From: Escherichia coli
GTDB lineage: Bacteria > Pseudomonadota > Gammaproteobacteria > Enterobacterales > Enterobacteriaceae
Length of the DNA stretch: 64,000 nt
Assembly (NCBI RefSeq): GCF_003019035.1
Contig: NZ_CP027447.1
Direction: 5' to 3' (one strand)
Part shown: positions 26,315 to 59,802 of the stretch, piece after piece
Position numbering within the stretch: the first letter of the stretch is position 1
Layout: each line of letters opens with the position of its first letter
Translations under genes and position numbers: made by a program
Notes under the pieces: generated by a model
Databases searched by the model: none
Told to the model about the DNA's origin: nothing
The model's input: the letters and a program-made list of their open reading frames with translations, nothing else

Positions 26315-26380
26315 TCCCGTACCTGTTCAGTATTCAGTAACAAACAAGCATTAAAAATAAACAGAAGAAGGAATTGAATC

Positions 26381-30598: not shown

Positions 30599-30609
30599 CA
30601 GGAGGAAAT

Positions 30610-31005: not shown

Positions 31006-31099
31006 ATTTTTTGATGATGACTTCAATTAGTAGAACATGTATTTTTCGATAAAAGCACCGATGACTTTTTCATGAAGTTCTACAGAGCGCGAGAAACAG

Positions 31100-32450: not shown

Positions 32451-32482
32451 AGTCTTACCCCGGCCCTAAACACAACCCCCAC

Positions 32483-33253: not shown

Positions 33254-33406
33254 GGTGTACAACTCCTTTATGCGAAGGGTTTTATAACTCTAACACCTTA
33301 TCAGGCAGTTGCCTTAGCGCAGAATAAATTGATAACAAATGCTGATATTGGAAATATCTGATTTGCAAATTATCGTGTTATCGCCAGGCTTTAGGAGGTT
33401 AATAAC

Positions 33407-33880
33407 ATGGGCAGGATAAGCTCGGGAGGAATGATGTTTAAGGCAATAACGACAGTCGCCGCTCTGGTCATCGCCACCAGTGCAATGGCGCAGGATGATT
33501 TAACCATTAGCAGCCTTGCAAAGGGCGAAACCACCAAAGCTGCGTTTAATCAGATGGTGCAAGGGCATAAGCTGCCTGCCTGGGTGATGAAAGGCGGTAC
33601 TTATACCCCTGCACAAACCGTAACGTTGGGAGATGAGACGTATCAGGTGATGAGCGCGTGCAAACCGCATGACTGTGGCTCGCAACGTATCGCTGTGATG
33701 TGGTCCGAGAAATCTAATCAGATGACGGGGCTGTTCTCGACCATTGATGAGAAAACGTCGCAAGAGAAACTCACCTGGTTGAATGTGAACGATGCGCTTT
33801 CTATTGATGGTAAAACGGTGCTGTTCGCGGCGTTGACCGGCAGCCTGGAAAACCATCCGGATGGCTTTAATTTTAAATAA
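33407..33880 (+). CDS. ivy: Inhibitor of vertebrate lysozyme Ivy
   Basis: 157-aa ORF with signal peptide and the CKPHDC loop motif; RBS aggagg. Confidence 0.9.
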   Translation: MGRISSGGMMFKAITTVAALVIATSAMAQDDLTISSLAKGETTKAAFNQMVQGHKLPAWVMKGGTYTPAQTVTLGDETYQVMSACKPHDCGSQRIAVMWSEKSNQMTGLFSTIDEKTSQEKLTWLNVNDALSIDGKTVLFAALTGSLENHPDGFNFK

Positions 33881-33894
33881 TTAGCGGATAAAGA

Positions 33895-33916
33895 AACGGA
33901 GCCTTTCGGCTCCGTT
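33895..33916. terminator. Bidirectional hairpin terminator between convergent ivy and fadE
   Basis: aacggagcc tttc ggctccgtt perfect hairpin flanked by A/T runs. Confidence 0.5.
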
Positions 33917-33922
33917 ATTCAA

Positions 33923-36367
33923 TTACGCGGCTTCAACTTTTCGCACTTTCTCCGGCAACTTTACCGGCTTCGTCGCCAGCTCTTCCGGATCAAAGTCATC
34001 AACATTAATACTGCGCAGACGGCTTTCTTCAGCTTTCACAAGAATAGCGGCTTCATCTTTATCAATCAGCCCCTTCGCCAGCGCGTTATGCGCCAGTTCA
34101 TCCAGACGGGTAAATGGCAGGTTTTTACCCAGCTCTTTACAGATCCTCTGATGAATTGGGTCGGCGGCAATCACATCCACCAGTGCCTCTTCCAGTAAAC
34201 CAACCGGGTTATGCTCGCTCGGCGTCAGGTACTGACCGCGGCCAATACGTGAGCGGGTGGCGTTTGGCACTTGTAAAATCTTCGCCACTTTATGATCCAG
34301 CTTGTCAGACGGTGCCAGATAATGACGTCCGGTCGGGAAGATCACCACATTCAGCAGCCCGGCAACCACGCGGTTCGGGAAGTTTTGCAGTAAATCGTCC
34401 ATCGCCTGCTCTGCCTGATACAGCGCATCCTGTACGCCCCAGTGCACCAGCGGCAGGTCGGCTTCATTACGGCCTTCGTCGTCATAACGCTTCAGAACGG
34501 CAGAGGCGAGGTAAAGCTGGCTTAAAATATCCCCCAGACGTGCCGAGATGCGCTCGCGACGTTTCAGGCTGCCGCCCAGCACCGCCATCGAGACATCAGA
34601 AAGCAGGGCGAGGTTGGCGCTCAGGCGGTTAAGATGCTGATAGTAGCGTTTAGTGGCATCGCCGGTTGGCGTGCTGCTGGTTAAACCGCGCGTCAGGCCC
34701 AGCCAGAAGCTGCGAACTTTGTTGCTACCGACGTGACCGATATGTTTGAACAGCAGTTTATCGAACGCGTTAACGTCATTGTTCTTCGCCGCTTCCATCT
34801 CTTCCAGCACGTACGGATGGCAACGAATCGCCCCCTGGCCGAAGATCATCATACTGCGGGTCAGAATGTTGGTCCCTTCAACGGTGATGGCAATCGGTGC
34901 GCCCTGATAAGCACGGGCCAGGAAGTTGCTCTGCCCGAGCATAATGCCTTTACCGCCGGTAATATCCATTGCATCAATAATTGACTGCTGCCCGCGGTGG
35001 GTACAGTGATACTTAACGATAGCCGACAGCACGGCAGGTTTTTCACCGAGCATAATGCCGTAGGTAATCAGCGATGCCGCAGCATCCATCACGTAGGCAT
35101 TACCGGCAATACGCGCCAGCGGCTCTTCAATCCCTTCCATCTTACCAATAGAGATTTTGAACTGACGGCGGATGTGCGCATACGCACCCGTTGCCAGCGC
35201 TACCGATTTCACGCCGCCGGTTGAGTTGGAAGGCAGGGTGATACCGCGGCCTACCGAGAGGCACTCCACCAGCATCCGCCAGCCTTGCCCGGCCATTTTC
35301 GGCCCGCCGATGATGTAATCGATCGGCACGAAGACATCTTTACCGCGCGTCGGTCCGTTCTGGAACGGTACGTTCAGCGGGAAGTGGCGACGACCAATTT
35401 CCACGCCCGGCGTGGTGGTCGGGATCAGCGCACAGGTAATACCTAAATCTTCTGTACCGCCGAGTAATTTCTCCGGGTCGGAGAGTTTAAACGCCAGCCC
35501 AAGCACGGTCGCAATCGGTGCCAGCGTAATGTAACGTTTGTTCCAGGTCAGTCGCATCCCCAGCACCTGCTGGCCCTGCCACTCGCCCATGCAAACAATC
35601 CCGGTATCCGGAATCGCGCCCGCATCGGAACCCGCTTCGGGGCTGGTCAGTGCAAAGCAAGGGATCTCCTGACCACGCGCCAGACGCGGCAGATAGTGAT
35701 CTTTCTGCTCGTCAGTGCCGTAATGTTGCAGCAGCTCGCCCGGACCTAATGAGTTCGGCACGCCGACGGTAATCGCCAGGATCCCGCTCACGCCGGAGAG
35801 TTTTTGCAGCACGCGAGACTGGGCATAAGCCGAGAACTCCAGCCCGCCGTACTCTTTTTTGATGATCATCGCGAAGAAGCGATGCTCTTTAAGATACGCC
35901 CACAGCTCCGGCGGCAAATCCGCCAGCTCATGGGTAATCTGGAAATCATTCGCCATCCGGCAGGCTTCTTCTACCGGACCGTCGAGAAACGCTTGCTCTT
36001 CAGCGGTCAGGCGCGGCTGCGGATAGTTATGCAGCTTTTTCCAGTCCGGCTTGCCCTGGAACAAATCGCCTTCCCACCAGGTGGTGCCCGCATCAATCGC
36101 TTCTTTCTCCGTGCGCGACATCGGCGGCATCACCTTACGGAAACCGCGAAATACCGGCGCGGAAATCATCGACCTACGCATAGGCGCAAAGTTAAATGGC
36201 ACGAGGATAATGGCCAGAGGCACCAGTACCCACACCGACCACAGACCAGCGACGCCGAGGGCGGCTGTCCAGGCGAGCAAAATCAGACTGCTGATAAATA
36301 AGCTCACGCGGTGATAGAACAACGCGCCGAGCAGGACAACCGTAGCGAGAATACTCAAAATCATCAT
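33923..36367 (-). CDS. fadE: Acyl-CoA dehydrogenase FadE
   Basis: About 814 aa from [20 protein letters not shown]; N-terminal membrane segment and acyl-CoA dehydrogenase core; the ORF-track N-terminal extension is rejected. Confidence 0.9.
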
Positions 36368-36387
36368 AACGAAAAGCCCCTTACTTG

Positions 36388-36406
36388 TAGGAGGTCTGAC
36401 CACTTG
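36388..36406 (-). promoter_or_regulatory. Candidate FadR operator upstream of fadE
   Basis: Palindromic GGTCTGACC core (gaggtctgaccac) about 25 bp upstream of the fadE start, resembling FadR sites (TGGTCnGACC). Confidence 0.4.
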
Positions 36407-36606
36407 TGATGATATGGTTGTAGTGGATGTGAAAACATTTAGCAATGCGTTTACAATATAATTACAACAAAGCTCACATTGTTGCTGTTTTTATCCGCAC
36501 TTCAGGTCAAAAAGTCCTGGTCATAGCACCTGCCCGTACTTCTCGCTTTTGGCGGTATCCGGTACACTGCATTTTGTCTATTACATTTATGCTGAAGGAT
36601 ATCCTC

Positions 36607-37185
36607 ATGTACCAGGATCTTATTCGTAACGAACTGAACGAAGCGGCGGAAACGCTGGCTAACTTTTTAAAAGATGACGCCAATATTCACGCCATTCAGC
36701 GCGCGGCGGTCCTGTTAGCAGACAGCTTTAAAGCCGGTGGCAAAGTGCTTTCCTGCGGCAACGGCGGCTCCCATTGCGACGCTATGCACTTTGCCGAAGA
36801 GTTGACCGGTCGCTACCGTGAAAACCGTCCGGGCTACCCGGCGATTGCCATTTCTGACGTTAGTCATATTTCCTGCGTCGGTAACGATTTTGGTTTCAAT
36901 GATATTTTCTCCCGTTACGTTGAAGCGGTAGGTCGCGAAGGCGATGTACTGCTGGGGATCTCTACCTCCGGTAACTCTGCAAACGTGATCAAAGCGATCG
37001 CAGCGGCGCGTGAGAAGGGGATGAAAGTGATCACCCTGACCGGTAAAGATGGCGGCAAAATGGCTGGCACGGCGGATATTGAAATTCGCGTTCCGCACTT
37101 TGGTTATGCCGACCGCATTCAGGAGATCCACATTAAAGTGATCCATATCCTGATCCAGTTAATTGAAAAAGAGATGGTTAAGTAA
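36607..37185 (+). CDS. gmhA: Phosphoheptose isomerase GmhA (LpcA)
   Basis: 192 aa from [21 protein letters not shown]; SIS-domain motifs ([24 protein letters not shown]). Confidence 0.9.
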
Positions 37186-37193
37186 GGTCTTTT

Positions 37194-37227
37194 CTCCCTT
37201 TCAGGGAGAGGGCCGGGGTGAGGGTAA
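37194..37227. repeat. GC-rich palindromic intergenic repeat (Box C-like family; family name uncertain)
   Basis: ctccctttcagggagagggccggggtgagggtaac; shares the CCCTC...GGGAGAGGG.TAGGGTGAGGG core with copies at 40476, 46942 and 56662-56770. Confidence 0.5.
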
Positions 37228-37300
37228 CAACCTGCACCTTTGTACTTTTTAATCAATCTTCGCCGGGGGCCATGCGCTCCCGCTGTTGTGGAGGTTACCC

Positions 37301-38068
37301 ATGTGCGAATTGCTCGGGATGAGCGCCAACGTCCCTACCGATATCTGCTTTAGTTTCACCGGACTTGTACAGCGTGGTGGTGGAACCGGGCCACATAAAG
37401 ATGGCTGGGGCATTACCTTTTACGAAGGTAAAGGCTGTCGCACATTTAAAGATCCGCAACCCAGCTTTAATTCCCCCATCGCCAAACTTGTCCAGGACTA
37501 CCCGATAAAATCCTGTTCGGTGGTGGCTCATATTCGCCAGGCGAATCGGGGAGAGGTGGCGCTGGAAAATACTCACCCGTTTACCCGCGAGTTATGGGGG
37601 CGTAACTGGACTTATGCCCATAATGGACAACTGACGGGCTACAAATCACTGGAAACCGGCAACTTCCGCCCGGTCGGTGAAACCGATAGCGAAAAAGCCT
37701 TTTGCTGGCTCCTGCATAAATTAACGCAGCGTTACCCGCGCACACCGGGCAACATGGCGGCAGTGTTTAAATATATCGCCTCACTGGCGGATGAACTGCG
37801 GCAGAAGGGCGTTTTCAACATGCTGCTTTCTGACGGGCGCTATGTAATGGCGTATTGCTCGACTAATTTACACTGGATCACCCGCCGCGCGCCGTTTGGC
37901 GTGGCAACGTTGCTGGATCAGGATGTGGAAATCGACTTCAGCTCGCAGACCACACCGAATGATGTGGTTACGGTGATTGCGACACAGCCGCTGACGGGCA
38001 ATGAAACCTGGCAAAAGATTATGCCAGGCGAATGGCGCTTATTTTGCCTCGGGGAGCGTGTAGTTTGA
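37301..38068 (+). CDS. yafJ: Class II glutamine amidotransferase-like protein YafJ
   Basis: Starts [10 protein letters not shown] (N-terminal nucleophile Cys after Met); RBS ggagg. Confidence 0.85.
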
Positions 38069-38779
38069 TGCCAGCTGTGGTTGCACAACTTCGTGGCTTA
38101 ACGGCTTGCTGACCACGTAACGGCCATTGACCACAGAAACGGTCGGTGGCTTACGGGTTTGCTCAAAGTAGTCGTAACCTGGCTTCAGCTGCTCCCAGAA
38201 GTCCTTAAAGTTGGAATATTTATGGCGCTTCATATTGGCGTCGGTCATGCGGAACGGGTAAATACTCACTTGCACGCTCGGCTGACCAAAAACCAGCGCA
38301 CCAGTAACGAACTGGAAGATCTCATCAATACCCTGATTGGTCATCGCGTAGCAGCCGATGGAAACACAATCGCCGTGGATCATCAGATATTTCCCTTCAT
38401 AACCATGCGCACGGTCATAGGCATTGGGGAATCCAATATTAATCGCTTTGTAGTAACGGCTGTCTGGTTTTAACTGATTACGCTGGACGCTATAAAACCC
38501 TTCCGGGCTTTTGAAATCGCCCTGACGCTGTTTTGGCCCTAAGCCGCCGGAATATTTACAGATTTTATAGCTGTCGAGCAGTTGATATTGCTCGCCCATT
38601 TTGACGTAGAGATCGAGCGTACGTTCTTCCTTGAAGATCTGGATGTAGACAGGGGATCCCATCAACTGCTGCTTATACTCTTTGCTCACTGGCGTGGTCG
38701 AGCTACTGCTGCCCAGCAAACCGGCAAACGAAACGCACGGGATCAACAACATCGCAAGAATTAATGCGATTTTACGCAT
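38039..38779 (-). CDS. yafK: L,D-transpeptidase-fold protein YafK (DpaA)
   Basis: 246-aa ORF with signal peptide; YkuD-like catalytic region ([14 protein letters not shown]). Confidence 0.85.
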
Positions 38780-38934
38780 ACTGCTTATTCCTTGATAAAA
38801 CGGTTACACACGCCAGGACGGCAAAATGGATCCCAAATCGGAATAGTCTGGATTGGGAAGGCTCACATTATCACCAAAAGAGTTTTACGCAAGCCTGTCG
38901 GCGCAGGGTTTACAAATTTCATCGGCAGCGGGCT

Positions 38935-39213
38935 TTACCCAAAGAGCGCCGCGTGAGTTCCAGTTCTCTCAAATCGTAAAAGTTTATCGGTAAGTTTGTA
39001 AATCAGGATCCAGTCCGGTTCGACATGAGCATCGCGATAACCTTTCCATGAACCTTGCAGCGGGTGGTCTTTATAAACAGCTGGAAGCAGTAAAGTATTA
39101 TTGATAAGAAGCGTCATAAGATATTTCAATTTATTCATATCCTTATGACGCTTTTGTGCAAGTTTTACATCCTTTGAAAATTGTCCCGAGTATTCAATAT
39201 CCCTTTGAATCAT
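38935..39213 (-). CDS. yafQ: Type II toxin YafQ (RelE-family mRNA interferase)
   Basis: 92-aa ORF immediately downstream of dinJ; classic antitoxin-toxin order. Confidence 0.9.
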   Translation of the reverse strand: MIQRDIEYSGQFSKDVKLAQKRHKDMNKLKYLMTLLINNTLLLPAVYKDHPLQGSWKGYRDAHVEPDWILIYKLTDKLLRFERTGTHAALFG

Positions 39214-39215
39214 AT

Positions 39216-39476
39216 TTAAATTCCTAATTTATCAAATAAATCATCGGCGTCTTTGGCCTTATGAACACCAACGCCAGCTTCGCTGTTTTTGATTGATTGA
39301 ATAGTTAATTGATTAGGCTCGCGTAAATCAAACGGCAATGCCTTTTCACGCGCGACTTTTGTGAGGGTTATGCGAACCAGGTCAGAGATGGTCAGCCCCA
39401 TCCCGGCCAGTACGTCCGCCGCCTGATTCTTCAGATCTTCATCGATTCGGGCGCGAACAAACGCGTTAGCAGCCAT
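39216..39476 (-). CDS. dinJ: Antitoxin DinJ
   Basis: 86-aa ORF, RBS aggag; precedes yafQ by 2 bp; LexA box directly upstream. Confidence 0.9.
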   Translation of the reverse strand: MAANAFVRARIDEDLKNQAADVLAGMGLTISDLVRITLTKVAREKALPFDLREPNQLTIQSIKNSEAGVGVHKAKDADDLFDKLGI

Positions 39477-39492
39477 TGGGGTATCTCCTGTG

Positions 39493-39508
39493 CTGTATAT
39501 TTATTCAG
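39493..39508. promoter_or_regulatory. LexA (SOS) box in dinJ promoter
   Basis: CTGTATATTTATTCAG matches CTGT-N8-ACAG with one mismatch, located just upstream of the dinJ RBS. Confidence 0.7.
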
Positions 39509-39685
39509 CTTGAATTGTAGCTCAAATGAGCAACAGCGACAATCCATGAGTAATTTAATAAACGGATGTTTTTACATAATTAACTGAAATATATTTATTA
39601 ATTTTATAATAATGGTTTATTAAGTTTGTTCAGGTACGGGCCGGGATACACTGCAACATCAATGCATGACCAGCCATTATTGAGA

Positions 39686-40435
39686 ATGTCTTTGCCGTCG
39701 ATTCCCTCTTTTGTGTTGTCGGGATTATTGTTGCTTTGCTTGCCGTTTTCTTCATTTGCCAGCGCCACCACATCACATATCTCTTTCAGCTACGCCGCCC
39801 GCCAGCGGATGCAAAACCGTGCGCGTTTATTAAAACAGTACCAAACCCATCTGAAAAAACAGGCCAGCTATATTGTGGAAGGCAATGCCGAAAGCAGAAA
39901 GGCGCTGCGCCAGCACAACCGCGAACAGATAAAACAGCATCCAGAATGGTTTCCTGCGCCGCTCAAGGCGAGTGACAGACGCTGGCAGGCGCTGGCGGAG
40001 AACAACCATTTCTTAAGCAGCGACCATCTACACAACATCACCGAAGTGGCGATTCACCGCCTGGAGCAGCAGCTTGGCAAGCCTTACGTCTGGGGCGGCA
40101 CGCGGCCCGATCAAGGCTTCGACTGTAGCGGGTTGGTTTTTTATGCCTACAACAAGATCCTCGAGGCGAAACTCCCGCGCACGGCTAATGAGATGTATCA
40201 CTACCATCGGGCAACGATTGTGGCGAATAACGACCTGCGCCGGGGAGATTTGCTGTTTTTCCATATTCACAGCCGCGAGATAGCCGATCATATGGGGGTG
40301 TATCTGGGAGACGGTCAGTTTATCGAGTCACCACGTACCGGCGAAACCATTCGGATAAGCCGGTTAGCTGAACCTTTCTGGCAGGATCATTTTTTAGGCG
40401 CGCGGCGGATTTTGACGGAAGAGACGATTTTGTAG
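39686..40435 (+). CDS. yafL: NlpC/P60-family lipoprotein YafL
   Basis: Start at MSLPSIPSFVLSGLLLLCLPFSS; NlpC/P60 catalytic motifs (GFDCSGLVFYAY ... DHMGVYLGDGQFIESP). Confidence 0.85.
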   Translation: MSLPSIPSFVLSGLLLLCLPFSSFASATTSHISFSYAARQRMQNRARLLKQYQTHLKKQASYIVEGNAESRKALRQHNREQIKQHPEWFPAPLKASDRRWQALAENNHFLSSDHLHNITEVAIHRLEQQLGKPYVWGGTRPDQGFDCSGLVFYAYNKILEAKLPRTANEMYHYHRATIVANNDLRRGDLLFFHIHSREIADHMGVYLGDGQFIESPRTGETIRISRLAEPFWQDHFLGARRILTEETIL

Positions 40436-40475
40436 GACGGCAATACTGCGAAAAAGTTAAAGTCGTACACGTTTT

Positions 40476-40503
40476 TCTCCCTCGCCCCAAAGGGGCGAGG
40501 GGA
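40476..40503. repeat. GC-rich palindromic repeat / hairpin at the yafL-lfhA junction
   Basis: tctccctcgccccaaaggggcgagggga perfect stem-loop between convergent yafL and lfhA; same family core as 37194/46942/56662. Confidence 0.45.
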
Positions 40504-40532
40504 CAGTCCGAGACCTTATATAGTCTCCCCCA

Positions 40533-42626
40533 TCAACTCAACGCCCCCATAATCTTCAACTCCAGCTCGTCCGGCACTTCGTTATACGACAGCACATGCA
40601 GCCCCGGCGCAAACAATCTCGCATAGCGCGCCAGCAAAGGGCGCAACTGCGGTGGCACCAGCAGCACAGGGTCTTTCCCCGCCGCTTTCATCTGCTCCTT
40701 CACTTGCGGCATCGTACTCTGGAACTGGTTGAGCATATTCGGGTCAACCGGCACGCTGTCGAGCATCACTTTGCCGGCCTGTTGCGCCTGATTCACCACG
40801 TTGGTCAGCAGATTTTCCAGCTCATTATTCAGCGTATACACCGTCAGCTCCTGCTTGCGAACGAACGGATGGGTAATGCTGCGCCGCAGCGCCAGGCGCA
40901 CATCTGCCGCCAGCAGAATATGATCTTTGGTCACCGCACTACTGGCGACAAGCACGGTGGCGATGGTGACGATATCGCGCAGGGAAACGCCTTCAGTCAG
41001 CAGCGCCCGGTACACTTTCAGCAACTGGCTGTAATTCAGCGCCGCGCTCAAATCCTCCGCCAGGCGCGGTGCCATCGACGACAAACGGTTATGCAGCTGA
41101 GTAATATCGTCATAGTTAAACAAATCAGGAATATAGCTGCGCACAATCTTATTCACATGTGTGGCAATTACGCTGGCGCTGTCGATCACCTGATACCCCA
41201 TATTCAGCGCCTTCGCCTTCTGCGCGGGCTGGATCCAGGTGACCGGCATCCCATATGCCGGGTCATTCCCCAGTACGCCGTCAATCTCGCCGTAGGTTTC
41301 GCTGGAGGGCAGGGCCATCAGTTTATCCGCCGGAATATCCGCTTCATCAGCCTTAATGCCGTTGATGAAAATGGCGTACTGGCTGGGCTTGAGACGGAAG
41401 TTTTCCCGAATACGGATCTCCGGCAGCAGCACGCCGTTACCGTCGGATATCACCTGCCGCACGCCGCGAATCCGCTGGGTGAGCGGGTTCCCCTGCGCTT
41501 TGTCCACCAGCGCCACCAGCTTGTAGCCGAGGCTTAAGCTGATGGGCTCGATCAGCGGAATGGTTTCCCAACTGACCTGTTGCTCGCTGGTTTCGGTGAT
41601 GGTTCGGGTCAGCGTTTCGAGGCTTTTCTCCTCCGCCTCCGCCGCCTGCGGGCGTTTGCTCATCCGCCAGCCGGTAAAGCCAAGCAGGGCGCTGAACAGC
41701 AAAAATGGCAGATGCGGCATCCCCGGCACCACCGCCAGCACAAACATGATCCCGGTGGCGGTGTAGAGCACCGACGGACTTGCCAGCAGCTGGTGGCGCA
41801 CGTCATGGGCGATATCGCCGTTGTCGCTGACGCGGGTGACGATAATTGCCGCCGCGGTGGAGAGCAGCAGGGACGGGATCTGCGCCACCAGCCCGTCGCC
41901 GATGGTCATCAGCACATATTGCTGGAAGGCGGCGTCGGCGCTCAGGTTGTATTTGAAGATCCCGATACAGACGCCGCCGATCAGGTTGATCGCCAGAATC
42001 ATCATCCCGGCGATGGCATCGCCGCGCACAAACTTCGATGCCCCGTCCATCGCGCCGTAGAAATCGGCCTCGCTGGCAACATCTTTACGCCGGGTTTGCG
42101 CCTGCGCCTGGTTGATCAATCCGGCGTTAAGATCGGCGTCAATCGCCATCTGCTTGCCGGGCATCGCGTCCAGGGTAAAGCGGGCAGAAACCTCGGAAAT
42201 ACGCTCGGCCCCTTTGGTGACGACGATAAAGTTGATGATCATCAGGATGATAAACACCACAAAGCCGACGACAAAGTTGCCGCCAATCACCACCTGACCA
42301 AATGACTCAATCACCTTACCCGCCGCGCCTGCGCCGAGATGCCCGTGCAGCAGCACCACGCGCGTAGAAGCAACGTTAAGCGTCAGGCGCATTAGGGTGG
42401 TGATCAGCAAAATGGTCGGGAACAGGCTGAATTCCAGCGGTCGTTTCGCCGACACCGCCACCAGCAGCACCATCACCGCCAGCACAATGTTGAAGGTGAA
42501 CAGAATATCCAGCAACGCAGGCGGCAGCGGCAGAATAACCATCGCCAGAATACACAGGATCACCAGCGGCACGCCGAGATTGCCGCCGCGCAGCAGCGCG
42601 AGGAACGATTTAGTTGTTTTCGCCAT
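40533..42626 (-). CDS. lfhA: Lateral flagellar export gate protein (FlhA homologue)
   Basis: 697-aa ORF, N-terminal polytopic membrane domain plus cytoplasmic domain, FlhA-like. Confidence 0.9.
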   Translation of the reverse strand: MAKTTKSFLALLRGGNLGVPLVILCILAMVILPLPPALLDILFTFNIVLAVMVLLVAVSAKRPLEFSLFPTILLITTLMRLTLNVASTRVVLLHGHLGAGAAGKVIESFGQVVIGGNFVVGFVVFIILMIINFIVVTKGAERISEVSARFTLDAMPGKQMAIDADLNAGLINQAQAQTRRKDVASEADFYGAMDGASKFVRGDAIAGMMILAINLIGGVCIGIFKYNLSADAAFQQYVLMTIGDGLVAQIPSLLLSTAAAIIVTRVSDNGDIAHDVRHQLLASPSVLYTATGIMFVLAVVPGMPHLPFLLFSALLGFTGWRMSKRPQAAEAEEKSLETLTRTITETSEQQVSWETIPLIEPISLSLGYKLVALVDKAQGNPLTQRIRGVRQVISDGNGVLLPEIRIRENFRLKPSQYAIFINGIKADEADIPADKLMALPSSETYGEIDGVLGNDPAYGMPVTWIQPAQKAKALNMGYQVIDSASVIATHVNKIVRSYIPDLFNYDDITQLHNRLSSMAPRLAEDLSAALNYSQLLKVYRALLTEGVSLRDIVTIATVLVASSAVTKDHILLAADVRLALRRSITHPFVRKQELTVYTLNNELENLLTNVVNQAQQAGKVMLDSVPVDPNMLNQFQSTMPQVKEQMKAAGKDPVLLVPPQLRPLLARYARLFAPGLHVLSYNEVPDELELKIMGALS

Positions 42627-43749
42627 CCAGTTTAAGCACCTCTTTGGGAATGGAAATATGTCTGTTCAGAGCCGGGCGCGGCTGTGCGCCCTCGCGCCAG
42701 TGTTTCATTTGCAGGACGTAGGTCAGAACGTGGGCGATAGCCCGGTAAAGCTGAAACGGAATTTGCTGGTTCACCTGGGTGGTGTAGTAAACCGAGCGCG
42801 CCAGTCGCGGGAACTCGACCACTTCCACCTGATTCTCAGTGGCGACCTGGCGAATATAGAGGGCGATTTCATCGGTGCCTTTCGCCACCACAAACGGCGC
42901 GGCGGCGCGAGACTGGTCATACTGCAACGCCACGGCGTAGTGGATCGGGTTGGTGATCACCACGTTGGCTTTCGGCACCACTTTGCGAATTTGCCCCATC
43001 GCCAGTTGCCGTTGCAGCCGCCGCACGCGCGCCTTCACTTCCGGCTTGCCTTCCTGATTTTTGTACTCTTCTTTCAGCTCCTGTTTGGTCATCTTCAGCC
43101 CTTTGGTAAACAGGGCTTTCGCCAGCGGTACGTCGATCAGCGCGAAGAAGATAAACAGGATGACAAAGTTGCGCATCACGCTGGCGTAGAGCGATAAACC
43201 ATCGTTAATTGCCAGTTTGAACGGCAGCGCCTGCAGGCCGAGAAAGGCGGCAAAGTTATTGCGCAGGCTTACCCACAGCATCACCAGTATCACCACCGAC
43301 TTCACCGTCATCTTTCCCGTTTCCGCCAGATGCTCGCTGGAAAACAGCCGCCCAATCCCTTTTAACGGACTGATTTTGCTGAAATCAGGGAGGATTTTTT
43401 TCGGCAGAAACAGCCAGCCGCCAGGCACCAGCGAGGAGAGCAGTGCGGCGGCGGGCATCGGCAGCAAGGTAAGAATAAACTTGCCGAGAATTAACAGGTG
43501 ATGGCGCAGAAACTGGCCGATCACATCCGGGTTATTAATCTCCTGCGCGTACTGATGCACGCTGATAAAACTCTCGCGCACAAAATCGGCATACCACGGG
43601 AAGCTGCTGGAGATCACCACAAATGCCGCAAACAGGCTCGCCGCCAGCCCCATATCCTTCGAGCGCGGCAGTTGCCCCTCTTCACGCGCTTTACGCAGCT
43701 TTTGCGCCGAGGGTTTCTCTGTTTTTTCTTCGCTGCTGCTATCCGCCAT
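42610..43749 (-). CDS. lfhB: Lateral flagellar export switch protein (FlhB homologue)
   Basis: 379-aa ORF; autocleavage-type motif NPIH (NPTH variant) in VVITNPIHYAVAL; overlaps lfhA start. Confidence 0.9.
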   Translation of the reverse strand: MADSSSEEKTEKPSAQKLRKAREEGQLPRSKDMGLAASLFAAFVVISSSFPWYADFVRESFISVHQYAQEINNPDVIGQFLRHHLLILGKFILTLLPMPAAALLSSLVPGGWLFLPKKILPDFSKISPLKGIGRLFSSEHLAETGKMTVKSVVILVMLWVSLRNNFAAFLGLQALPFKLAINDGLSLYASVMRNFVILFIFFALIDVPLAKALFTKGLKMTKQELKEEYKNQEGKPEVKARVRRLQRQLAMGQIRKVVPKANVVITNPIHYAVALQYDQSRAAAPFVVAKGTDEIALYIRQVATENQVEVVEFPRLARSVYYTTQVNQQIPFQLYRAIAHVLTYVLQMKHWREGAQPRPALNRHISIPKEVLKLDGENN

Positions 43750-44521
43750 AGTGACCTTTCAGCGCGTCGAGTTGCTGCAACACAAAATTCGCCAGATGCA
43801 GATAGTGATCCGGCAGGTTGTAGAGCAGGGTGGCGAAGCAAACCAGCCCCGCCAGCATGTTGATGGGAAAGCCGAGCGAAAAAAGGTTCAGCGGCGGCGC
43901 AATGCGGTTAAGCAGGCCAAAGCAGCCCTGCACAATCAGCATGATAAAAGTGGTCGGCAGCGCCAGCAGTGATGCGGACGCCAGTACCCAGCTAAAGGCC
44001 AGCGCGATGGTGCGCAGGGTTTGCGGATGCAGCGCGTTGCCAATCGGCCAGTAGGTGAAGCCCTTATACAGCACGCTTACCAGCAGCAGATGCCCGTCCA
44101 TGGCAAAAAACAGCAGGATCGCGTAGACGTTAATTAATTCCGCCAGCACGGTTGTTGATGCGCCGCTGCTCGGGTCGTTCATCACCGCCATGCTCATCCC
44201 CATATTGAACGAGAGAATTTGCCCGGCCAGTTGCAGCGCCAGAAACAGAAACTGAAACATCAGCCCGAACAACATGCCCCATAAGATTTGCTCCACCGTC
44301 AGGATCAAACTGTTGAGCGAGAGCAAATCATGGGGAATGGGATGGGGGATCAACGGCGTGATGATGATTGCCAGCGCCAGCGACAAAATAATCCGCACGC
44401 GCACGGTCAGGGCGCTGTTATCCAGCACCGGCACATAGCGCAGAAACGCCATAATGCGCACGAAGGGAAACCACAGCCCCAGCGCCAGATCCATCAGTTG
44501 CGTAACGTCGCTTGTGCGCAT
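43739..44521 (-). CDS. lfiR: Lateral flagellar export protein (FliR homologue)
   Basis: Polytopic membrane protein; start set at MRTSDVTQLMD adjacent to the lfiQ stop. Confidence 0.8.
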   Translation of the reverse strand: MRTSDVTQLMDLALGLWFPFVRIMAFLRYVPVLDNSALTVRVRIILSLALAIIITPLIPHPIPHDLLSLNSLILTVEQILWGMLFGLMFQFLFLALQLAGQILSFNMGMSMAVMNDPSSGASTTVLAELINVYAILLFFAMDGHLLLVSVLYKGFTYWPIGNALHPQTLRTIALAFSWVLASASLLALPTTFIMLIVQGCFGLLNRIAPPLNLFSLGFPINMLAGLVCFATLLYNLPDHYLHLANFVLQQLDALKGHYGG

Positions 44522-44522
44522 C

Positions 44523-44795
44523 TTAATGCACCAGCAGGGCGGCCTGGGTAAACAGGTGAATGCAGAGATCATGCAACTGGATAATCATCCATTTGCCGCA
44601 CACGCCCAGCACCACCAGCGTGACAATCAGCCTCGGCAAAAAGCTCAGGGTCTGTTCGTTAATCTGCGTCACCGCCTGGAACACGCTCACCAGCAGGCCG
44701 ACCAGCAGGCTTGGCACCACCAGTACCGAAACCAGCAAAATCACTACTTTAATGCCGCTGGCGACAATGTCGGCGGCTACGTCTACGGTCAACAT
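44523..44795 (-). CDS. lfiQ: Lateral flagellar export protein (FliQ homologue)
   Basis: 90-aa two-helix membrane protein. Confidence 0.85.
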   Translation of the reverse strand: MLTVDVAADIVASGIKVVILLVSVLVVPSLLVGLLVSVFQAVTQINEQTLSFLPRLIVTLVVLGVCGKWMIIQLHDLCIHLFTQAALLVH

Positions 44796-44797
44796 AA

Positions 44798-45550
44798 TCA
44801 GCCCAGCCCCAGCCCGCGAATGCTGGTGGTGAGCGTGCCGATGGTCAGCGACCAGCCGTCAATCAGCACAAACAGCATCAGTTTAAAGGGCAGCGAAACA
44901 ATCAGCGGCGACAGCATCATCATCCCCATCGCCATCAATACGCTGGCGACAATCAGGTCGATAACCAGAAACGGGATGTAAATCATAAAGCCAATCTGGA
45001 AAGCGGTTTTCAGCTCGCTCAGTACATAGGCGGGCACCACGATGGAGAGATCCTGGTCGGCGGCATTGCCCTTCGCGCCGCCGATGGTCATGATTTGCGC
45101 CATCGCTTTTTTGTCGGTCTGCGCCAGCATAAAGCGTTTTAGCGGCGTCGCGGCGGTGCTTAACGCATCGGTCAGGGTAATCCGATCGTTTTCGAACGGC
45201 ACCACCGCGTGGTCGTAAATATTGAGCCAGATGGGGCGCATCACCAGCAGGGTGAGTGAGAGCGCAATACCTATCAGAATGCGGTTCGGCGGCGTTTGTT
45301 GCAGCCCCAGCGCCTGGCGCAGCAGCGACAGCACGATAATAAAGCGCGTAAAGCAGGTCATCATCAGCACCATCGTCGGCAGCAAACCGACGAGGGTCAT
45401 CAGAATCAGTACCTGAATTTTGACGCTGTACTCCTGAGTGTTGCCGTGGGTCACCACGTTAAGTAGCGCAATATCGCCACCCTGGGCCAACGCCAGCGGC
45501 GCAAGCGCCAGCAGCCCAAGGCCCAGCGCCAGTTGAGTGCGGCGTTTCAT
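44798..45550 (-). CDS. lfiP: Lateral flagellar export protein (FliP homologue)
   Basis: 250-aa ORF with signal peptide and FliP C-terminal signature (GMMMLSP...SLPFKLMLFVLIDGW). Confidence 0.9.
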   Translation of the reverse strand: MKRRTQLALGLGLLALAPLALAQGGDIALLNVVTHGNTQEYSVKIQVLILMTLVGLLPTMVLMMTCFTRFIIVLSLLRQALGLQQTPPNRILIGIALSLTLLVMRPIWLNIYDHAVVPFENDRITLTDALSTAATPLKRFMLAQTDKKAMAQIMTIGGAKGNAADQDLSIVVPAYVLSELKTAFQIGFMIYIPFLVIDLIVASVLMAMGMMMLSPLIVSLPFKLMLFVLIDGWSLTIGTLTTSIRGLGLG

Positions 45551-45918
45551 GGTGCCAGGTCGTTGATATCGCGGGTGTTAAACTCCAGCACGCGCAGGCC
45601 GTACTTCTCGTTGACCACCACCACTTCCGCTTTGCCCAGCAGGATATTGTTCACTTTGATATCCAGCGGCTCCCCGGCGAGCTTATCCAGCTCAATCACC
45701 GTGTCGTCGTCGATGTTAAGCAGGTCGGCTAACATAATTTCCACCGACGACACTTCCAGCGTTAAGGTCACCGGAATGCGTTTCAGCAGCGTCATCGAGT
45801 CGGAAAAGCGGTCTTCCAGGCGGGTGACCAGCGTTTCGGCGTCGGCGGATTTCGTGACAGGCGCAACTTCATCGGCGAGGCCAAAATCCCCGGCTAAAAT
45901 ATCGTCTTGTTTACTCAT
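45547..45918 (-). CDS. lfiN: Lateral flagellar switch protein (FliN homologue)
   Basis: Start set at MSKQDDILAGDFG; C-terminal SpoA-like region. Confidence 0.8.
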   Translation of the reverse strand: MSKQDDILAGDFGLADEVAPVTKSADAETLVTRLEDRFSDSMTLLKRIPVTLTLEVSSVEIMLADLLNIDDDTVIELDKLAGEPLDIKVNNILLGKAEVVVVNEKYGLRVLEFNTRDINDLAP

Positions 45919-46762: not shown

Positions 46763-46941
46763 GGCTTACTTTCTCTGCTGTAATGGTATGGGTGTTTCTG
46801 TGCACGCAAATCCGGCTGTGACACAAGGTGAGGTATTAAATAGAGGGGGAGTGAAAGGGGCAAATTATTAATAGGGTGAAAAAATAATTAATCGATTAAT
46901 TGCTTAATGGGAGTTATTTTCGCCAATCAGTCTGCGGTCTG

Positions 46942-46981
46942 TCCCCTCGCCCCATCCGGGGAGAGGGTTAGGGTGAGGGGG
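46942..46981. repeat. GC-rich palindromic repeat (Box C-like family) in the lfiM / lafK divergent region
   Basis: tcccctcgccccatccggggagagggttagggtgaggggg. Confidence 0.5.
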
Positions 46982-47134
46982 CATCACAGATGTCGAAATT
47001 AACAGTATTAATATCTAACTAATTGTTTACCATCAAATAATATTTTTATTATCGTTTAATTCGAACTTGTTAATCCCGCCGGTGATACGCTTCAGAACAT
47101 CCTGTTTTCTGTCGCTACTGATATCGTTCACCCT

Positions 47135-48121
47135 ATGTCTGAACTTATTGCAACTGCCGCTTCCAGCATTAACGCTTTTACTCTGGCAAAGCGTGTCGCC
47201 GCCTTTAACGTGCCGGTGCTCATTCAGGGCGAAACCGGTGCGGGCAAAGAGTGCGTGGCGAAATATATTCACACAGTCGCCTTTGGTGAAAATGAAAGCG
47301 CACCCTATGTCGGCGTGAACTGCGCGGCGATCCCGGAAAATATGCTGGAATCTACCTTATTTGGCTACGACAAAGGCGCATTTACCGGCGCAATTGCCAG
47401 CGTGCCAGGAAAAATGGAACTGGCGAATAACGGCACCTTATTACTCGATGAAATTGGCGATATGCCGCTGGCGTTACAGGCCAAAATATTACGCGTATTG
47501 CAGGAACAACAGGTTGAGCGATTAGGCAGCAACCGACAAATTAAACTCAATTTTCGCCTGATTGCCTGTACCAATAAAAACCTTGAACAGGAAGTTGCCA
47601 CCGGGCGTTTTCGTGAAGATCTCTATTATCGTCTGGCGGTGATTCCTATTACCATGCCGCCGCTGCGTGAACGTCTGAACGATATTATTCCGCTGGCAGA
47701 GTCATTTATTAAAAAATACTCCACGGTGCTGGTGAAAAATATCACCCTGTCGGAATCTACCCGCCGGGCGCTGCTCAATTACCGCTGGCCCGGCAACGTG
47801 CGCCAGCTCGAAAACGCCATTCAGCGTGGAATGATTTTAAATCGCGACGGCGTGATTTTCCCGGATGCCTTAGGCCTGCCGGAAACAGACGTTGCCGACC
47901 ACAGTGAACTGCAATGGCCTGTTCAGCCTGCCGTCCACATTGCCGAAACCAGCGATTTAGGCCAGCACGGACGAAGTGCGCAATATCAATATATCGCCGA
48001 CCTGATGCGTAAATATCAGGGCAACCGCAGCAAAATTGCCGACCTGTTAGGCATTACCCCGCGCGCACTGCGCTATCGACTGGCCTCCATGCGCAAGCAC
48101 GGTATCGAAGTTTTCTCCTGA
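47135..48121 (+). CDS. lafK: Sigma-54-dependent transcriptional activator of lateral flagella, lacking an N-terminal receiver domain
   Basis: 328-aa ORF beginning directly in the AAA+ sigma-54 activation domain (Walker A GETGAGKE, GAFTGA motif, C-terminal HTH); an upstream in-frame stop precludes a receiver domain. Confidence 0.8.
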   Translation: MSELIATAASSINAFTLAKRVAAFNVPVLIQGETGAGKECVAKYIHTVAFGENESAPYVGVNCAAIPENMLESTLFGYDKGAFTGAIASVPGKMELANNGTLLLDEIGDMPLALQAKILRVLQEQQVERLGSNRQIKLNFRLIACTNKNLEQEVATGRFREDLYYRLAVIPITMPPLRERLNDIIPLAESFIKKYSTVLVKNITLSESTRRALLNYRWPGNVRQLENAIQRGMILNRDGVIFPDALGLPETDVADHSELQWPVQPAVHIAETSDLGQHGRSAQYQYIADLMRKYQGNRSKIADLLGITPRALRYRLASMRKHGIEVFS

Positions 48122-48135
48122 CCCGGAAGTTAAAA

Positions 48136-48477
48136 ATGAGCATTACCACAATCAACAGCACCATGCAGGCGCAAATCATGCAGGACGTGCAGCGGATGCA
48201 GGCCAACGCCCAGGCACCGGTGCTGCCCGCCATGACCTTCAGTTCCACCGACCCGGACGTTTCGTTTAACCGCATTATGAGCGGTGCGCTCGGTCATGTT
48301 GACCAGTTCCAGCAGGTGGCGGAGCAGCAGCAAACGGCTGTCGACACGGGCAAAAGTGATGACCTGGCAGGGGCGATGATCGCCAGCCAGCAGGCGTCGC
48401 TCTCGTTCTCCGCGCTGGTTCAGGTGCGCAACAAAATCGCCACCGGATTTAACGATCTGATGAGTATGTCGATCTAA
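48136..48477 (+). CDS. lfiE: Lateral flagellar hook-basal body protein (FliE homologue)
   Basis: 113-aa ORF; FliE-like C-terminus. Confidence 0.8.
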   Translation: MSITTINSTMQAQIMQDVQRMQANAQAPVLPAMTFSSTDPDVSFNRIMSGALGHVDQFQQVAEQQQTAVDTGKSDDLAGAMIASQQASLSFSALVQVRNKIATGFNDLMSMSI

Positions 48478-56790: not shown

Positions 56791-57720
56791 TCACGTCAGC
56801 AGCGAAAATGCTGACAGCAGCGGCTCTGCCGCACATAACGACTGGAGCTGCTGGCGAATCGCCGCAGCATTTTCACTCTCTCGCCAGCGTTCAAACACCG
56901 CAAAAAGGGCGAAAATATCCTCCTTCCGCAGCGGTGAACCATCCAGCGTCCATAAACTGATTAACGTGCGGATGAGATAAAAATCACACACCAGCGGGCA
57001 ATAATCTGCTCCGTCTGCCTGCCCAATCACGTCGTGATAAACGCGGTAAATCAGCCAGTTGCGCATCATCCACGGCGCGGCGGCAAAATGCTGTTGCCAG
57101 GTGGTTTGCCACTGCACCTTAAGCTGCTGTTGCAACAAAGCTTCGCTGTTGGCGTCATGCAACGTCAGCAAAGTCACCTGCAACGGTAGCGAGGCTTTGC
57201 GCGGGCTTTCCGGCAAAATCGACCAGTCAAACGCAAAACTCCCGAGCAGCGTCACCAGTTGGCGCGCCAGTTGTGGCACGGGTGGGAGTTGGGCGAACTG
57301 TGCCTGTAGCGTGCCTTTTTGTGCATGATCCCCCAGCGCCTGTGGCAGCGTTGTCAAGCGGGCAAGAATATCTCCGTCTCTGCCCGGCATTTTACTGGCG
57401 CGGGAGAGCAAAATCCCGACGGCATACAGGGAAAGCTCCGGGGTTAAATCGGGGAGCGTAAGGGTACTCAAAATTATCTGGTTGACTATCGCATCGCGCG
57501 CGGATAGCTCGGCGGCATTGTCTTCCACAGGGCGGTAGGTGAGCTGTAAATCAAAGGCCCTGGCATCGTTGAGCACCGCTTTGCAACTTTCAATATCGGT
57601 CAATGCCAGGCTCTGGCGAATCTCATTCTTCCAGACCTTGCGGACGTACAAAGGCGAATCGGGATATTGCGTCATAAAATTGCGCACGTATTCCGGTTCG
57701 TAACATTCAATAAAACTCAT
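56791..57720 (-). CDS. Hypothetical protein of the Flag-2 locus
   Basis: About 309 aa from MSFIECYEPEYVRNF; no recognisable motif by eye; sits between lfgN and the glycosyltransferase gene on the same strand. Confidence 0.5.
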   Translation of the reverse strand: MSFIECYEPEYVRNFMTQYPDSPLYVRKVWKNEIRQSLALTDIESCKAVLNDARAFDLQLTYRPVEDNAAELSARDAIVNQIILSTLTLPDLTPELSLYAVGILLSRASKMPGRDGDILARLTTLPQALGDHAQKGTLQAQFAQLPPVPQLARQLVTLLGSFAFDWSILPESPRKASLPLQVTLLTLHDANSEALLQQQLKVQWQTTWQQHFAAAPWMMRNWLIYRVYHDVIGQADGADYCPLVCDFYLIRTLISLWTLDGSPLRKEDIFALFAVFERWRESENAAAIRQQLQSLCAAEPLLSAFSLLT

Positions 57721-57847
57721 AGGTGGCTTCCAGTCTTTATTACTTTGCGGAATGTGCAATAAGCGTGCCGGGAATTTTTGTAATCAAAAACAAGGGATTG
57801 AGAATCAGGCGGAAAATCCGTTTCCGCGATGGGGGAAGGAATTGTCG

Positions 57848-58647: not shown

Positions 58648-59385
58648 TTACTCCGCGCTTACCGTCGTCACCACGCCGCTTTCTGCCACCATTGCGCTGA
58701 TGACCCGCTGGCTGCTGGCGTTACGTACTTTCACCATCTCGCCTTTGCGGCCATTTTTCAGCGCCACGCCGGGCATCGAGGCGGTGATCCCCGCGCTCTG
58801 GTAAACAATCATCACCGGCTCATCGCGTTCGACCAGCACTGGCGAAACCAGCTCTTCTTTGGTGATTGGTCTGCCCGGTTGCAACGCGTGCTTACTGCTG
58901 AAACCAATTGCGTCATCGAGCTCCATCAGCACATCCCGCCGCTGGGCGCTGACGTTGTAGGGCTTCAGCTCCACATCATTTGCCGTGAGCGGCGTATCGC
59001 GGGCAATCAGTGACTTTGCCATCACCACCGGCACCAGAACATCCGGGCGCACCGCGACGTTCATCTGCCAGCTTTGCGGGCAACTGACGGTGAAGTTCAT
59101 CCGGTTAAGGGCGATTTCCGCAGGCGACGTCAGCGTGACGCCGGGTGACGTTGTACAGGGCGCGGCGGTCGCAATCTGCGACGGAATATAGACCTTAAAG
59201 GTGTAGCGATAGTCATGCCATTGCCGCTGCTGCGCCAGCGATTCAATTTTTTGGCTCGCGGCATTCAGTACCTGGGCGTTGATTTGTTCCCGCGCGCTAT
59301 GTTGCACGGGATGGACGGCGGCGTAGCCCGGTAAGGCCAGCGCCAGGAGGAAATAAAACTTCCGCCTGCAAAATTGAAAACTCAT
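58648..59385 (-). CDS. lfgA: Lateral flagellar P-ring assembly chaperone (FlgA homologue)
   Basis: Start at MSFQFCRRKFYFLLALALPGYAA (signal peptide) with RBS; divergent from lfgB. Confidence 0.75.
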   Translation of the reverse strand: MSFQFCRRKFYFLLALALPGYAAVHPVQHSAREQINAQVLNAASQKIESLAQQRQWHDYRYTFKVYIPSQIATAAPCTTSPGVTLTSPAEIALNRMNFTVSCPQSWQMNVAVRPDVLVPVVMAKSLIARDTPLTANDVELKPYNVSAQRRDVLMELDDAIGFSSKHALQPGRPITKEELVSPVLVERDEPVMIVYQSAGITASMPGVALKNGRKGEMVKVRNASSQRVISAMVAESGVVTTVSAE

Positions 59386-59414: not shown

Positions 59415-59430
59415 TGGCACAGCGATTGCA
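59415..59430 (+). promoter_or_regulatory. Sigma-54 (-24/-12) promoter for the lfgBCDEFG operon
   Basis: TGGCAC-agcga-TTGCA, an exact match to the RpoN consensus, about 37 bp upstream of the lfgB ATG (59467). Confidence 0.65.
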
Positions 59431-59466: not shown

Positions 59467-59802
59467 ATGGGGATCAGTTTTCAGCAGGCATTGGGAGTAC
59501 ATCCGCAGGCAGTGAAGTTACGTCTTGAGAGGACCGAGCTACTGACTGCGAATCTGGCGAATGTCGATACGCCAAATTTCAAGGCTAAAGATATTGATTT
59601 TGCCAGGGAGATGCAACGGGCAAATAACGCGGCGGTGGATGTCCAGTACCGCGTGCCGATGCAGCCGTCAGAAGATGGCAACACCGTGGAACTGAACAGC
59701 GAACAGGCACGGTTTTCACAAAATAGTATGGATTATCAAAGCAGTCTGACCTTTCTGAATCTGCAAATCAGCGGCATCAGAGAGGCCATTGAAGGGAAAT
59801 AA
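59467..59802 (+). CDS. lfgB: Lateral flagellar proximal rod protein (FlgB homologue)
   Basis: Start set at MGISFQQ (RBS aggag) downstream of the sigma-54 promoter; rod-family motif (LTANLANVDTPNFKA). Confidence 0.8.
   Translation: MGISFQQALGVHPQAVKLRLERTELLTANLANVDTPNFKAKDIDFAREMQRANNAAVDVQYRVPMQPSEDGNTVELNSEQARFSQNSMDYQSSLTFLNLQISGIREAIEGK

Follow-up and report, generated by a model that had tools for sequence, protein, structure and literature searches.

LafK, a sensor-less activator of the Escherichia coli Flag-2 flagellar locus, and a candidate enhancer module at predicted sigma-54 promoters

Enterobacterial Flag-2 loci appear, with somewhat better than even probability, to share a fixed LafK enhancer module, in which a palindrome, sometimes an IHF-like site at about -50, and a -24/-12 element are combined at the promoters of a three-promoter regulon, with lafK and the export-gate operon lying outside it. 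The activator concerned is encoded by ORF 47135-48121 of the window (the whole 64-kb stretch of E. coli DNA analysed here), and sequence comparisons make it probable that this is lafK, which encodes the sigma-54 enhancer-binding protein dedicated to E. coli Flag-2, and that its sensor-less two-module form is native. The absence of a sensor domain from LafK and its partnership with sigma-54 are already known, and the gene is annotated: RefSeq E. coli entries list this 987-nt CDS under the product name "sigma-54 interaction domain-containing protein". What is possibly new, and modest in extent, is the candidate LafK enhancer together with the predicted three-promoter regulon that includes a flagellin-modification operon. 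The papers searched yielded neither a description of this enhancer module nor an experiment on the regulation of Flag-2 in E. coli, where the system is commonly regarded as cryptic or non-functional (PMC4481668).

Results

Organization of the Flag-2 locus

Mapping by tblastn placed Flag-2 (lateral-type) clusters 1 and 2 from about 40.5 kb to the end of the window (Table 1). Downstream of lafK the order is lfiEFGHIJ followed by a cytidylyltransferase gene, and the 14-nt gap between lafK and lfiE suggests that lafK heads a co-transcribed lafK-lfiEFGHIJ operon. Genes lfgN, lfgM and lfgA lie on the minus strand beside the methylase and glycosyltransferase genes, and lfgBCDEFG is encoded on the plus strand from 59467. 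Of 5426 complete E. coli genomes, 1274 (about a quarter) carry the lafK region at ≥80% coverage. Strain SCU-301 is 99.75% identical to the window over 24433-42236 and matched window positions 1-25000 at 100%. An Rfam search gave no match across 46-60 kb, and a scan for the sigma-28 consensus TAAA-N15-GCCGATA gave no convincing intergenic site in the window or in cluster 3.

Table 1 Features of the Flag-2 locus relevant to LafK and its predicted promoters, in window coordinates; counterparts of the lfgB element in five other genera are listed last.
Feature	Position	Strand	Basis and details
lfhA-lfhB-lfiRQPNM	42626 to 45914; lfiM start 46762	-	tblastn map
lfiM-lafK divergent intergenic region, presumed to hold the lafK promoter	46763..47134	.	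no sigma-54 site, no palindrome
In-frame TAA closing the lafK frame	47057..47059	+	78 nt 5' of the ATG; sequence reading and script
lafK CDS	47135..48121	+	328 aa plus stop, ATG start; ORF list
GAFTGA codons (sigma-54 contact loop, residues 81-86)	47375..47392	+	ggcgcatttaccggcgca
Fis-type HTH_8 DNA-binding domain, residues 284-317	47984..48085	+	Pfam
lfiE (FliE-like)	48136..48477	+	tblastn and orthologous E. coli annotation; 14 nt 3' of lafK
Glycosyltransferase gene	56612-54141	-	downstream of methylase gene; tblastn map
FliB-like flagellin lysine-N-methylase gene	56791..57720	-	tblastn, RefSeq product names, Pfam FliB_C on orthologues
Second predicted sigma-54 -24/-12 element	57755..57770	-	CGGCACGCTTATTGCA; 35 nt before the methylase gene
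Perfect palindrome (14/14), methylase promoter	57809..57827	.	GCGGAAAATCCGTTTCCGC; centre 48 nt 5' of the -26 base (~-74)
Candidate LafK enhancer (12/14) at lfgB	59347..59365	.	GAGGAAATAAAACTTCCGC; centre 59 nt before the -26 T (~-85)
Predicted lfgB sigma-54 -24/-12 element, lfgBCDEFG... operon	59415..59430	+	TGGCACAGCGATTGCA
lfgB (FlgB-like rod protein), promoter-proximal gene of its operon	59467..59802	+	tblastn; identical (100%) to E. coli LfgB
lfgB-element counterpart, Budvicia			TGGCACACATATTGCT
lfgB-element counterpart, Leminorella			TGGCACGCAATTTGCG
lfgB-element counterpart, Hafnia			TGGCATGGTAATTGCT
lfgB-element counterpart, Citrobacter			TGGCATACATATTGCT
lfgB-element counterpart, Atlantibacter			TGGCATGCATATTGCT

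LafK consists of an AAA+ core and a DNA-binding domain

The original prediction described LafK as an AAA+ sigma-54 activation domain carrying GAFTGA plus a C-terminal helix-turn-helix (HTH) and nothing more, with an in-frame stop upstream that rules out a receiver or sensor domain. Both statements were borne out. Pfam assigned residues 6-172 to Sigma54_activat (E 2.5e-64), 178-246 to AAA_lid_14 and 284-317 to HTH_8 (E 2.3e-08), and no Pfam domain was detected N-terminal of residue 6. The protein begins at the AAA+ core. The same search of the 328-aa protein yielded no receiver (REC, PF00072) match and no FleQ N-terminal domain. The catalytic motifs are intact: Walker A (GETGAGKE) begins at residue 32 and Walker B (LLLDEIG) at 102, and GAFTGA lies between them from residue 81. 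Between the upstream TAA and position 47135, a script found no ATG, GTG or TTG, and reading of the sequence revealed no obvious Shine-Dalgarno motif before the start. LafK and its counterpart in E. coli H1 share 99% identity (tblastn); with the proteins that occupy this position in Flag-2 of other E. coli, the identity is 96-99%. The putative link to the experimentally studied LafK of Vibrio and Aeromonas draws on the literature and on naming.

The short form of LafK is conserved across genera

Orthologous loci were compared in five genera beside the E. coli of the window, namely Citrobacter, Leminorella, Atlantibacter, Hafnia and Budvicia. The divergent lfiM-lafK-lfiE arrangement is kept in all five, with an lfiM-lafK spacer of 434-641 nt, and an in-frame stop precedes the lafK start in all six genera, at 78 nt in the window and at 9-72 nt in the others. 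LafK N-termini align from their first residues (MSELIA, MFELIA, MSGFIA or MSDLIA), with Hafnia and Budvicia adding only ~13 residues. More broadly, LafK lengths proved uniformly short, at 324-348 aa across >100 orthologue clusters that include homologues down to ~60% identity and represent Citrobacter, Leminorella, Enterobacter, Atlantibacter, Pseudescherichia, Scandinavium, Siccibacter, Budvicia, Pantoea, Hafnia, Pragia and other genera. Between E. coli and Citrobacter, dN/dS of lafK is ~0.05, a value to be read with dS near saturation. Taken together, the orthologue lengths, the upstream stops and this dN/dS indicate that short LafK is native and not a truncation.

A longer LafK translated from a missed upstream start, which would contradict the original prediction, was looked for in the six genera and not found, the open stretches in the lfiM-lafK spacers reaching at most 64 codons. 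Four homologues with REC or ACT domains and 61-73% identity to LafK (P0047, P0062, P0112 and P0078) were considered as longer forms and rejected, as they come from short ENA contigs and are assembly chimeras: in each, the N-terminus of NtrC (E. coli), TyrR or another regulator runs into a LafK C-terminus, with the junction in the conserved FREDL...PPLRER motif.

We also considered whether short LafK could be what is left, after truncation, of a FleQ-type activator or one with a receiver, within a decaying, non-functional Flag-2, in which case its pairing with the promoters would be a fossil. The state of Flag-2 in E. coli lends this idea some substance, since the system is often deleted or mutated, the near-identical strain SCU-301 carries an lfhA'-lafU deletion scar, and reviews term the E. 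coli cluster non-functional (PMC4481668); furthermore, below ~55% identity most of the nearest relatives carry a receiver and measure 440-480 aa. However, a remnant is very hard to reconcile with an equal length and start region across many genera, a dN/dS of ~0.05, fully intact catalytic motifs, a region upstream of lafK devoid of any domain remnant, cluster 1 and 2 genes that are all full length in the window relative to E. coli references (tblastn), and a cis-module kept across at least 12 genera (see below), and we regard it as highly improbable. The receivers and lengths of the more distant relatives suggest, short of proof, that the LafK lineage lost its N-terminal domain. Short activators with 43-56% identity to LafK also occur in a representative library.

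Predicted sigma-54 promoters precede three Flag-2 transcription units

The exact TGGCAC-N5-TTGCA element that had been proposed upstream of lfgB was recovered at precisely its predicted position, and a search of other Flag-2 upstream regions for GG-N10-GC added sites before the methylase gene and lafB. No other exact TGGCAC-N5-TTGCA occurs in the 64-kb window beside the lfgB element, TGGCACAGCGATTGCA, which sits in the 81-nt lfgA-lfgB spacer, 37 nt before the lfgB ATG. Its position and orientation are conserved in Citrobacter, Leminorella, Atlantibacter, Hafnia and Budvicia (Table 1), and a genome scan identified it in at least 11 further species, which supports the lfgB site as a conserved predicted sigma-54 promoter. 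Counterparts of the methylase promoter were found in Leminorella, Citrobacter and Atlantibacter, and in Enterobacteriaceae RIT691 by genome scan. The third site, TGGTACGCCTTTTGCC, precedes lafB in cluster 3 of a related E. coli, outside the window, where the lafB operon extends to the sigma-28 gene and motor genes.

The raw number of sites is not above chance: two sigma-54-like sites scoring 11/12 were detected in 64 kb versus 0.8 expected from shuffles. Both are intergenic, correctly oriented and located 35-37 nt before Flag-2 start codons, and it is this placement, the count being insufficient by itself, that gives them significance as promoters. Transcription from the Flag-2 sigma-54 elements would presumably require rpoN.

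A phased palindrome marks a candidate LafK enhancer

The lfgB, methylase and lafB promoters are each preceded by the palindrome GCGGAAA-N5-TTTCCGC, whose centre falls near -74 or at -85 to -87. Within the window, the only matches with at most two mismatches are those at the methylase and lfgB promoters, compared to 0.45 expected from shuffles, and across ~370 kb (the window together with the other loci compared) every match of at least 13/14 is upstream of a sigma-54 site. For 11 promoters located without reference to the palindrome, the best match within 200 nt was taken; in all 11 its centre is separated from the -26 T by 48-49 or 58-61 nt, which places it near -74/-75 or at -84 to -87, two sets of positions that differ by one helical turn. 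For lfgB, the distance to the -26 T is 59-62 nt in 16 of the 16 species examined. The lfgB palindrome falls within codons 7-13 of lfgA, and because it lies inside this coding sequence its conservation could partly reflect signal-peptide codons.

A wider scan used the pattern GGAAA-N5-TTTCC-N38-55-TGGCA-N6-TTGC on one genome per species and returned at least 120 stretches, at least 26 of them within Flag-2 and representing no fewer than 12 genera (Citrobacter, Enterobacter, Pseudocitrobacter, Cedecea, Tatumella, Phytobacter, Mangrovibacter, Serratia, Budvicia and others, and also Escherichia whittamii). These examples necessarily fit the pattern used to find them, and what they can tell lies in where they occur and how they are spaced. 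Among the matches listed, those in Flag-2 were always directly before lfgB, lafB or a fliB-like gene, and the others were scattered over unrelated phyla, as chance would give; the spacing, for which 46-63 was permitted, was tight, with its mode at 48 for lafB and 61 for lfgB, again among the matches listed. An exact IHF-type consensus, YAANNNNTTGATW, was present in 9 of the 15 lafB promoters among the matches listed, centred 24 nt before the -26 T. This layout is that of a classical enhancer, bend and sigma-54 promoter, as judged from sequence, and the palindrome is likely to be the binding site of the LafK HTH and hence a candidate enhancer.

The assignment of the palindrome to LafK draws on position and conservation, which leaves room for a different regulator (e.g., a cluster 3 LafZ-type protein or a host factor) to bind it, with LafK acting elsewhere or enhancer-free. 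Some activators are indeed enhancer-free, Helicobacter FlgR being listed without a DNA-binding domain (PMC3162934). Yet LafK has retained its HTH_8 domain under purifying selection, and the palindrome is confined to sigma-54 promoters, where its distances show the helical phasing usual for sites of enhancer-binding proteins, and missing from the lfiM-lafK spacer, which lacks a sigma-54 site. We therefore consider another occupant improbable.

The region upstream of lafK lacks both elements

In the lfiM-lafK spacer the best GG-N10-GC candidate scores 7/12 in the window, and none exceeds 9/12 across the six genera; likewise, the exact GGAAA-N5-TTTCC core occurs in none of the six. Autoregulation of lafK and lfiM through a sigma-54 site or the palindrome was accordingly rejected, neither being present in the six genera. 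A scan for the sigma-70 consensus upstream of lafK gave no match at the scan threshold. A weak TTGTTT-N17/18-TATTAT candidate can be seen upstream of lafK by eye; we do not claim it as a promoter.

With neither a sigma-54 promoter nor the palindrome before lafK, the supply of LafK would be set by another promoter or regulator, and expression of lafK, of the MS-ring, C-ring and ATPase genes that follow it and of the export-gate operon appears not to depend on LafK. In addition, the lack of a receiver or sensor domain suggests that LafK should be active once made, possibly constitutively. The expectation that lateral flagellar expression is controlled through LafK abundance or a partner protein and not by phosphorylation is thus supported at the sequence level, by the missing receiver and by a lafK upstream region free of both elements.

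Abundance may not be the whole answer, as LafK could be gated post-translationally by an inhibitory partner or by a small ligand, for example c-di-GMP, acting on the AAA+ domain. Activators of the same architectural class, PspF and HrpR/HrpS, are partner-controlled: PspA inhibits PspF and HrpV inhibits HrpS, and the AAA+ domain of FleQ binds c-di-GMP. The solved structures closest to the AAA+ domain of LafK include FleQ-type domains, and in Vibrio parahaemolyticus LafV represses surface-regulon genes when LafK is present (PMC9303241). On the other hand, no candidate partner gene was identified in the window, and the segment preceding the AAA+ core, where the LFRS c-di-GMP motif of FleQ presumably lies, has no counterpart in LafK, which begins at the core. 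At what is presumably the position of the post-Walker-A arginine of FleQ, LafK has a lysine (GKECVAKYIH). Gating of this kind in place of simple abundance control seems unlikely, if less so than the alternatives weighed above; it is compatible with the main explanation and does not exclude it.

Discussion

Proposed regulatory circuit

In the circuit that we propose for enterobacterial Flag-2, lafK-lfiEFGHIJ would be expressed from a LafK-independent promoter that sets the supply of LafK, and any post-translational control would require a partner protein. LafK would then bind GCGGAAA-N5-TTTCCGC at about -74 or at -85 to -87, positions one helical turn apart, and contact sigma-54 RNA polymerase at the -24/-12 element, at some promoters across an intervening IHF-like site. 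The predicted targets are the promoters of lfgB (rod and hook), of the FliB-like methylase and glycosyltransferase genes (flagellin modification) and of lafB (the operon with the sigma-28 gene). If this is true, flagellin modification would be co-regulated with hook-basal-body assembly and not with flagellin. A by-product is a testable map of the Flag-2 circuit in Enterobacterales, with three promoters that carry the element and the palindrome and operons that do not, which offers handles on whether and when a poorly understood second flagellar system switches on in E. coli and its relatives.

Comparison with known systems

The likeness to PspF that had been suggested for LafK holds for layout and fails for family. 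Both proteins combine an AAA+ domain with a C-terminal HTH and have no N-terminal regulatory domain, their lengths are similar (~325 aa for PspF, 328 aa for LafK), and PspF also acts from an enhancer, downstream of which come an IHF-type site and then a sigma-54 promoter. In contrast, LafK scores far below the NCBIfam cut-offs for PspF (237.4 vs. 443.55 bits for TIGR02974, 206.1 vs. 529 for NF008622), neither a psp operon nor a PspA partner is found near lafK, whose neighbours are all flagellar, and the closest solved AAA+ domains in the PDB are those of FlrC, NifA, NtrC1 and FleQ, with PspF further down. FlrC (4qhs, E 5e-74) and FleQ (5exp, E 6e-65) resemble LafK in AAA+ sequence and in controlling flagellar genes, but FleQ and FlrA have their own N-terminal FleQ domain and FlrC its own phosphorylatable receiver, neither of which is present in LafK. 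HrpR and HrpS are a paralogue pair that acts jointly and is countered by HrpV. These Pseudomonas syringae proteins share with LafK and PspF their membership in the class of activators lacking a signal recognition domain (Francke et al. 2011, PMC3162934). Unlike them, LafK is a single gene product with a flagellar regulon.

The closest comparison is with LafK itself in V. parahaemolyticus, Aeromonas hydrophila and E. coli 042 (CAH19120.1 in 042), reportedly treated by Ren et al. 2005, Stewart & McCarter 2003 and Kim & McCarter 2004. As in the window, the Vibrio, Aeromonas and 042 proteins are sigma-54 activators without a signal-recognition domain, encoded within the lateral cluster and adjoining fliE_L/lfiE. 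De Maayer et al. used the 042 protein as a marker of Flag-2 across Enterobacterales (PMC6993521), and LafK/sigma-54 control of lateral flagellar genes is established in V. parahaemolyticus. LafK is described as the sigma-54-associated activator of the class II lateral genes, including the sigma-28 gene (PMC4481668; PMC3658858). [quoted passage not shown] The fliM_L operon of V. parahaemolyticus is LafK-independent (PMC3930126), and the E. coli lfiM operon, whose spacer holds neither site, appears to be so as well. The two systems differ in that V. parahaemolyticus lafK expression is reported to fall in an rpoN mutant (PMC9817140), whereas no sigma-54 site precedes E. coli lafK, and in that the E. 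coli locus adds a flagellin-modification operon to the predicted targets of LafK.

Presence and absence of the Flag-2 locus

Comparison with strain SCU-301 (NZ_CP051751.1) revealed that the 30+ kb Flag-2 locus is both present and absent between near-identical flanks. Up to window position 42236, within lfhA, the two sequences are 99.75–100% identical; past this point SCU-301 continues directly in lafU, which is the classical scar of Flag-2 deletion. Near-identical flanks therefore occur with and without Flag-2. The best other E. coli Flag-2 is only ~96–97% identical to that of the window. The first half of the window carries a type VI secretion cluster (tssM, tssH, tssF, tssC, tssA and others), together with IS remnants and genes for VgrG and RHS core proteins. 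Between these and the start of Flag-2 lie yafV, ivy, fadE, lpcA, yafJ, dpaA and yafL.

Location of features in the window and at locus L013 of a second E. coli
Feature	Sequence	Position
Type VI secretion, VgrG and RHS genes, IS remnants	window	1-32000
Stretch compared with SCU-301	window	24433-42236
GC-rich palindromic dispersed repeat CCCCTCGCCCCATCCGGGGAGAGGGTTAGGGTGAGGGGG, centre of lfiM<>lafK spacer	window	46935-46985
Candidate lfgB enhancer	window	59347-59365
lafB promoter, lafA-lafB gap	NZ_CP076709, L013 (outside the window)	6146-6245

Candidate LafK sites and a repeat upstream of lafK

The candidate LafK enhancer of lfgB, an imperfect (12/14) match to the GCGGAAA-N5-TTTCCGC palindrome, lies within the divergent lfgA, at signal-peptide codons 7–13 (C-RRKFYFL-L). 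Since the palindrome also overlaps the basic and hydrophobic LfgA start in other genera, this stretch serves as both coding and candidate regulatory sequence. At the lafB promoter of E. coli NZ_CP076709, two neighbouring palindromes centred at ~-74 and ~-97 sit directly 3' of an apparent lafA terminator hairpin (judged by eye), and their adjacency suggests tandem candidate LafK sites.

The lafK promoter region is itself a polymorphic repeat site, because classical REP/BIME-type repeats take the place of the dispersed repeat in two other aligned strains. The dispersed repeat of the window (folding energy -36.6 kcal/mol, z -3.2; median of ~14 copies per E. coli genome) is missing from this spacer position in most Flag-2-positive E. 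coli.

Pattern matches and LafK-like proteins beyond the window

In the scan of one genome per species, a single uncultured Poribacteria contig (CATOTL010000001.1, L075-L078) held at least seven matches to the composite palindrome and sigma-54 pattern, with a LafK-like sigma-54 activator match (36% identity) at L077. This cluster may reflect repetition of an element or, alternatively, a sigma-54 regulon that is unrelated.

Four LafK-like database proteins (P0047, P0062, P0112 and P0078), all from ENA contigs of 2–5 kb outside the window, have a LafK C-terminus preceded by an N-terminal part from NtrC, TyrR or a different regulator, with the junction at the conserved FREDL...PPLRER motif. Such chimeric entries, which probably arose when paralogous genes for sigma-54 activators were joined during assembly, could mislead surveys of domain architecture.
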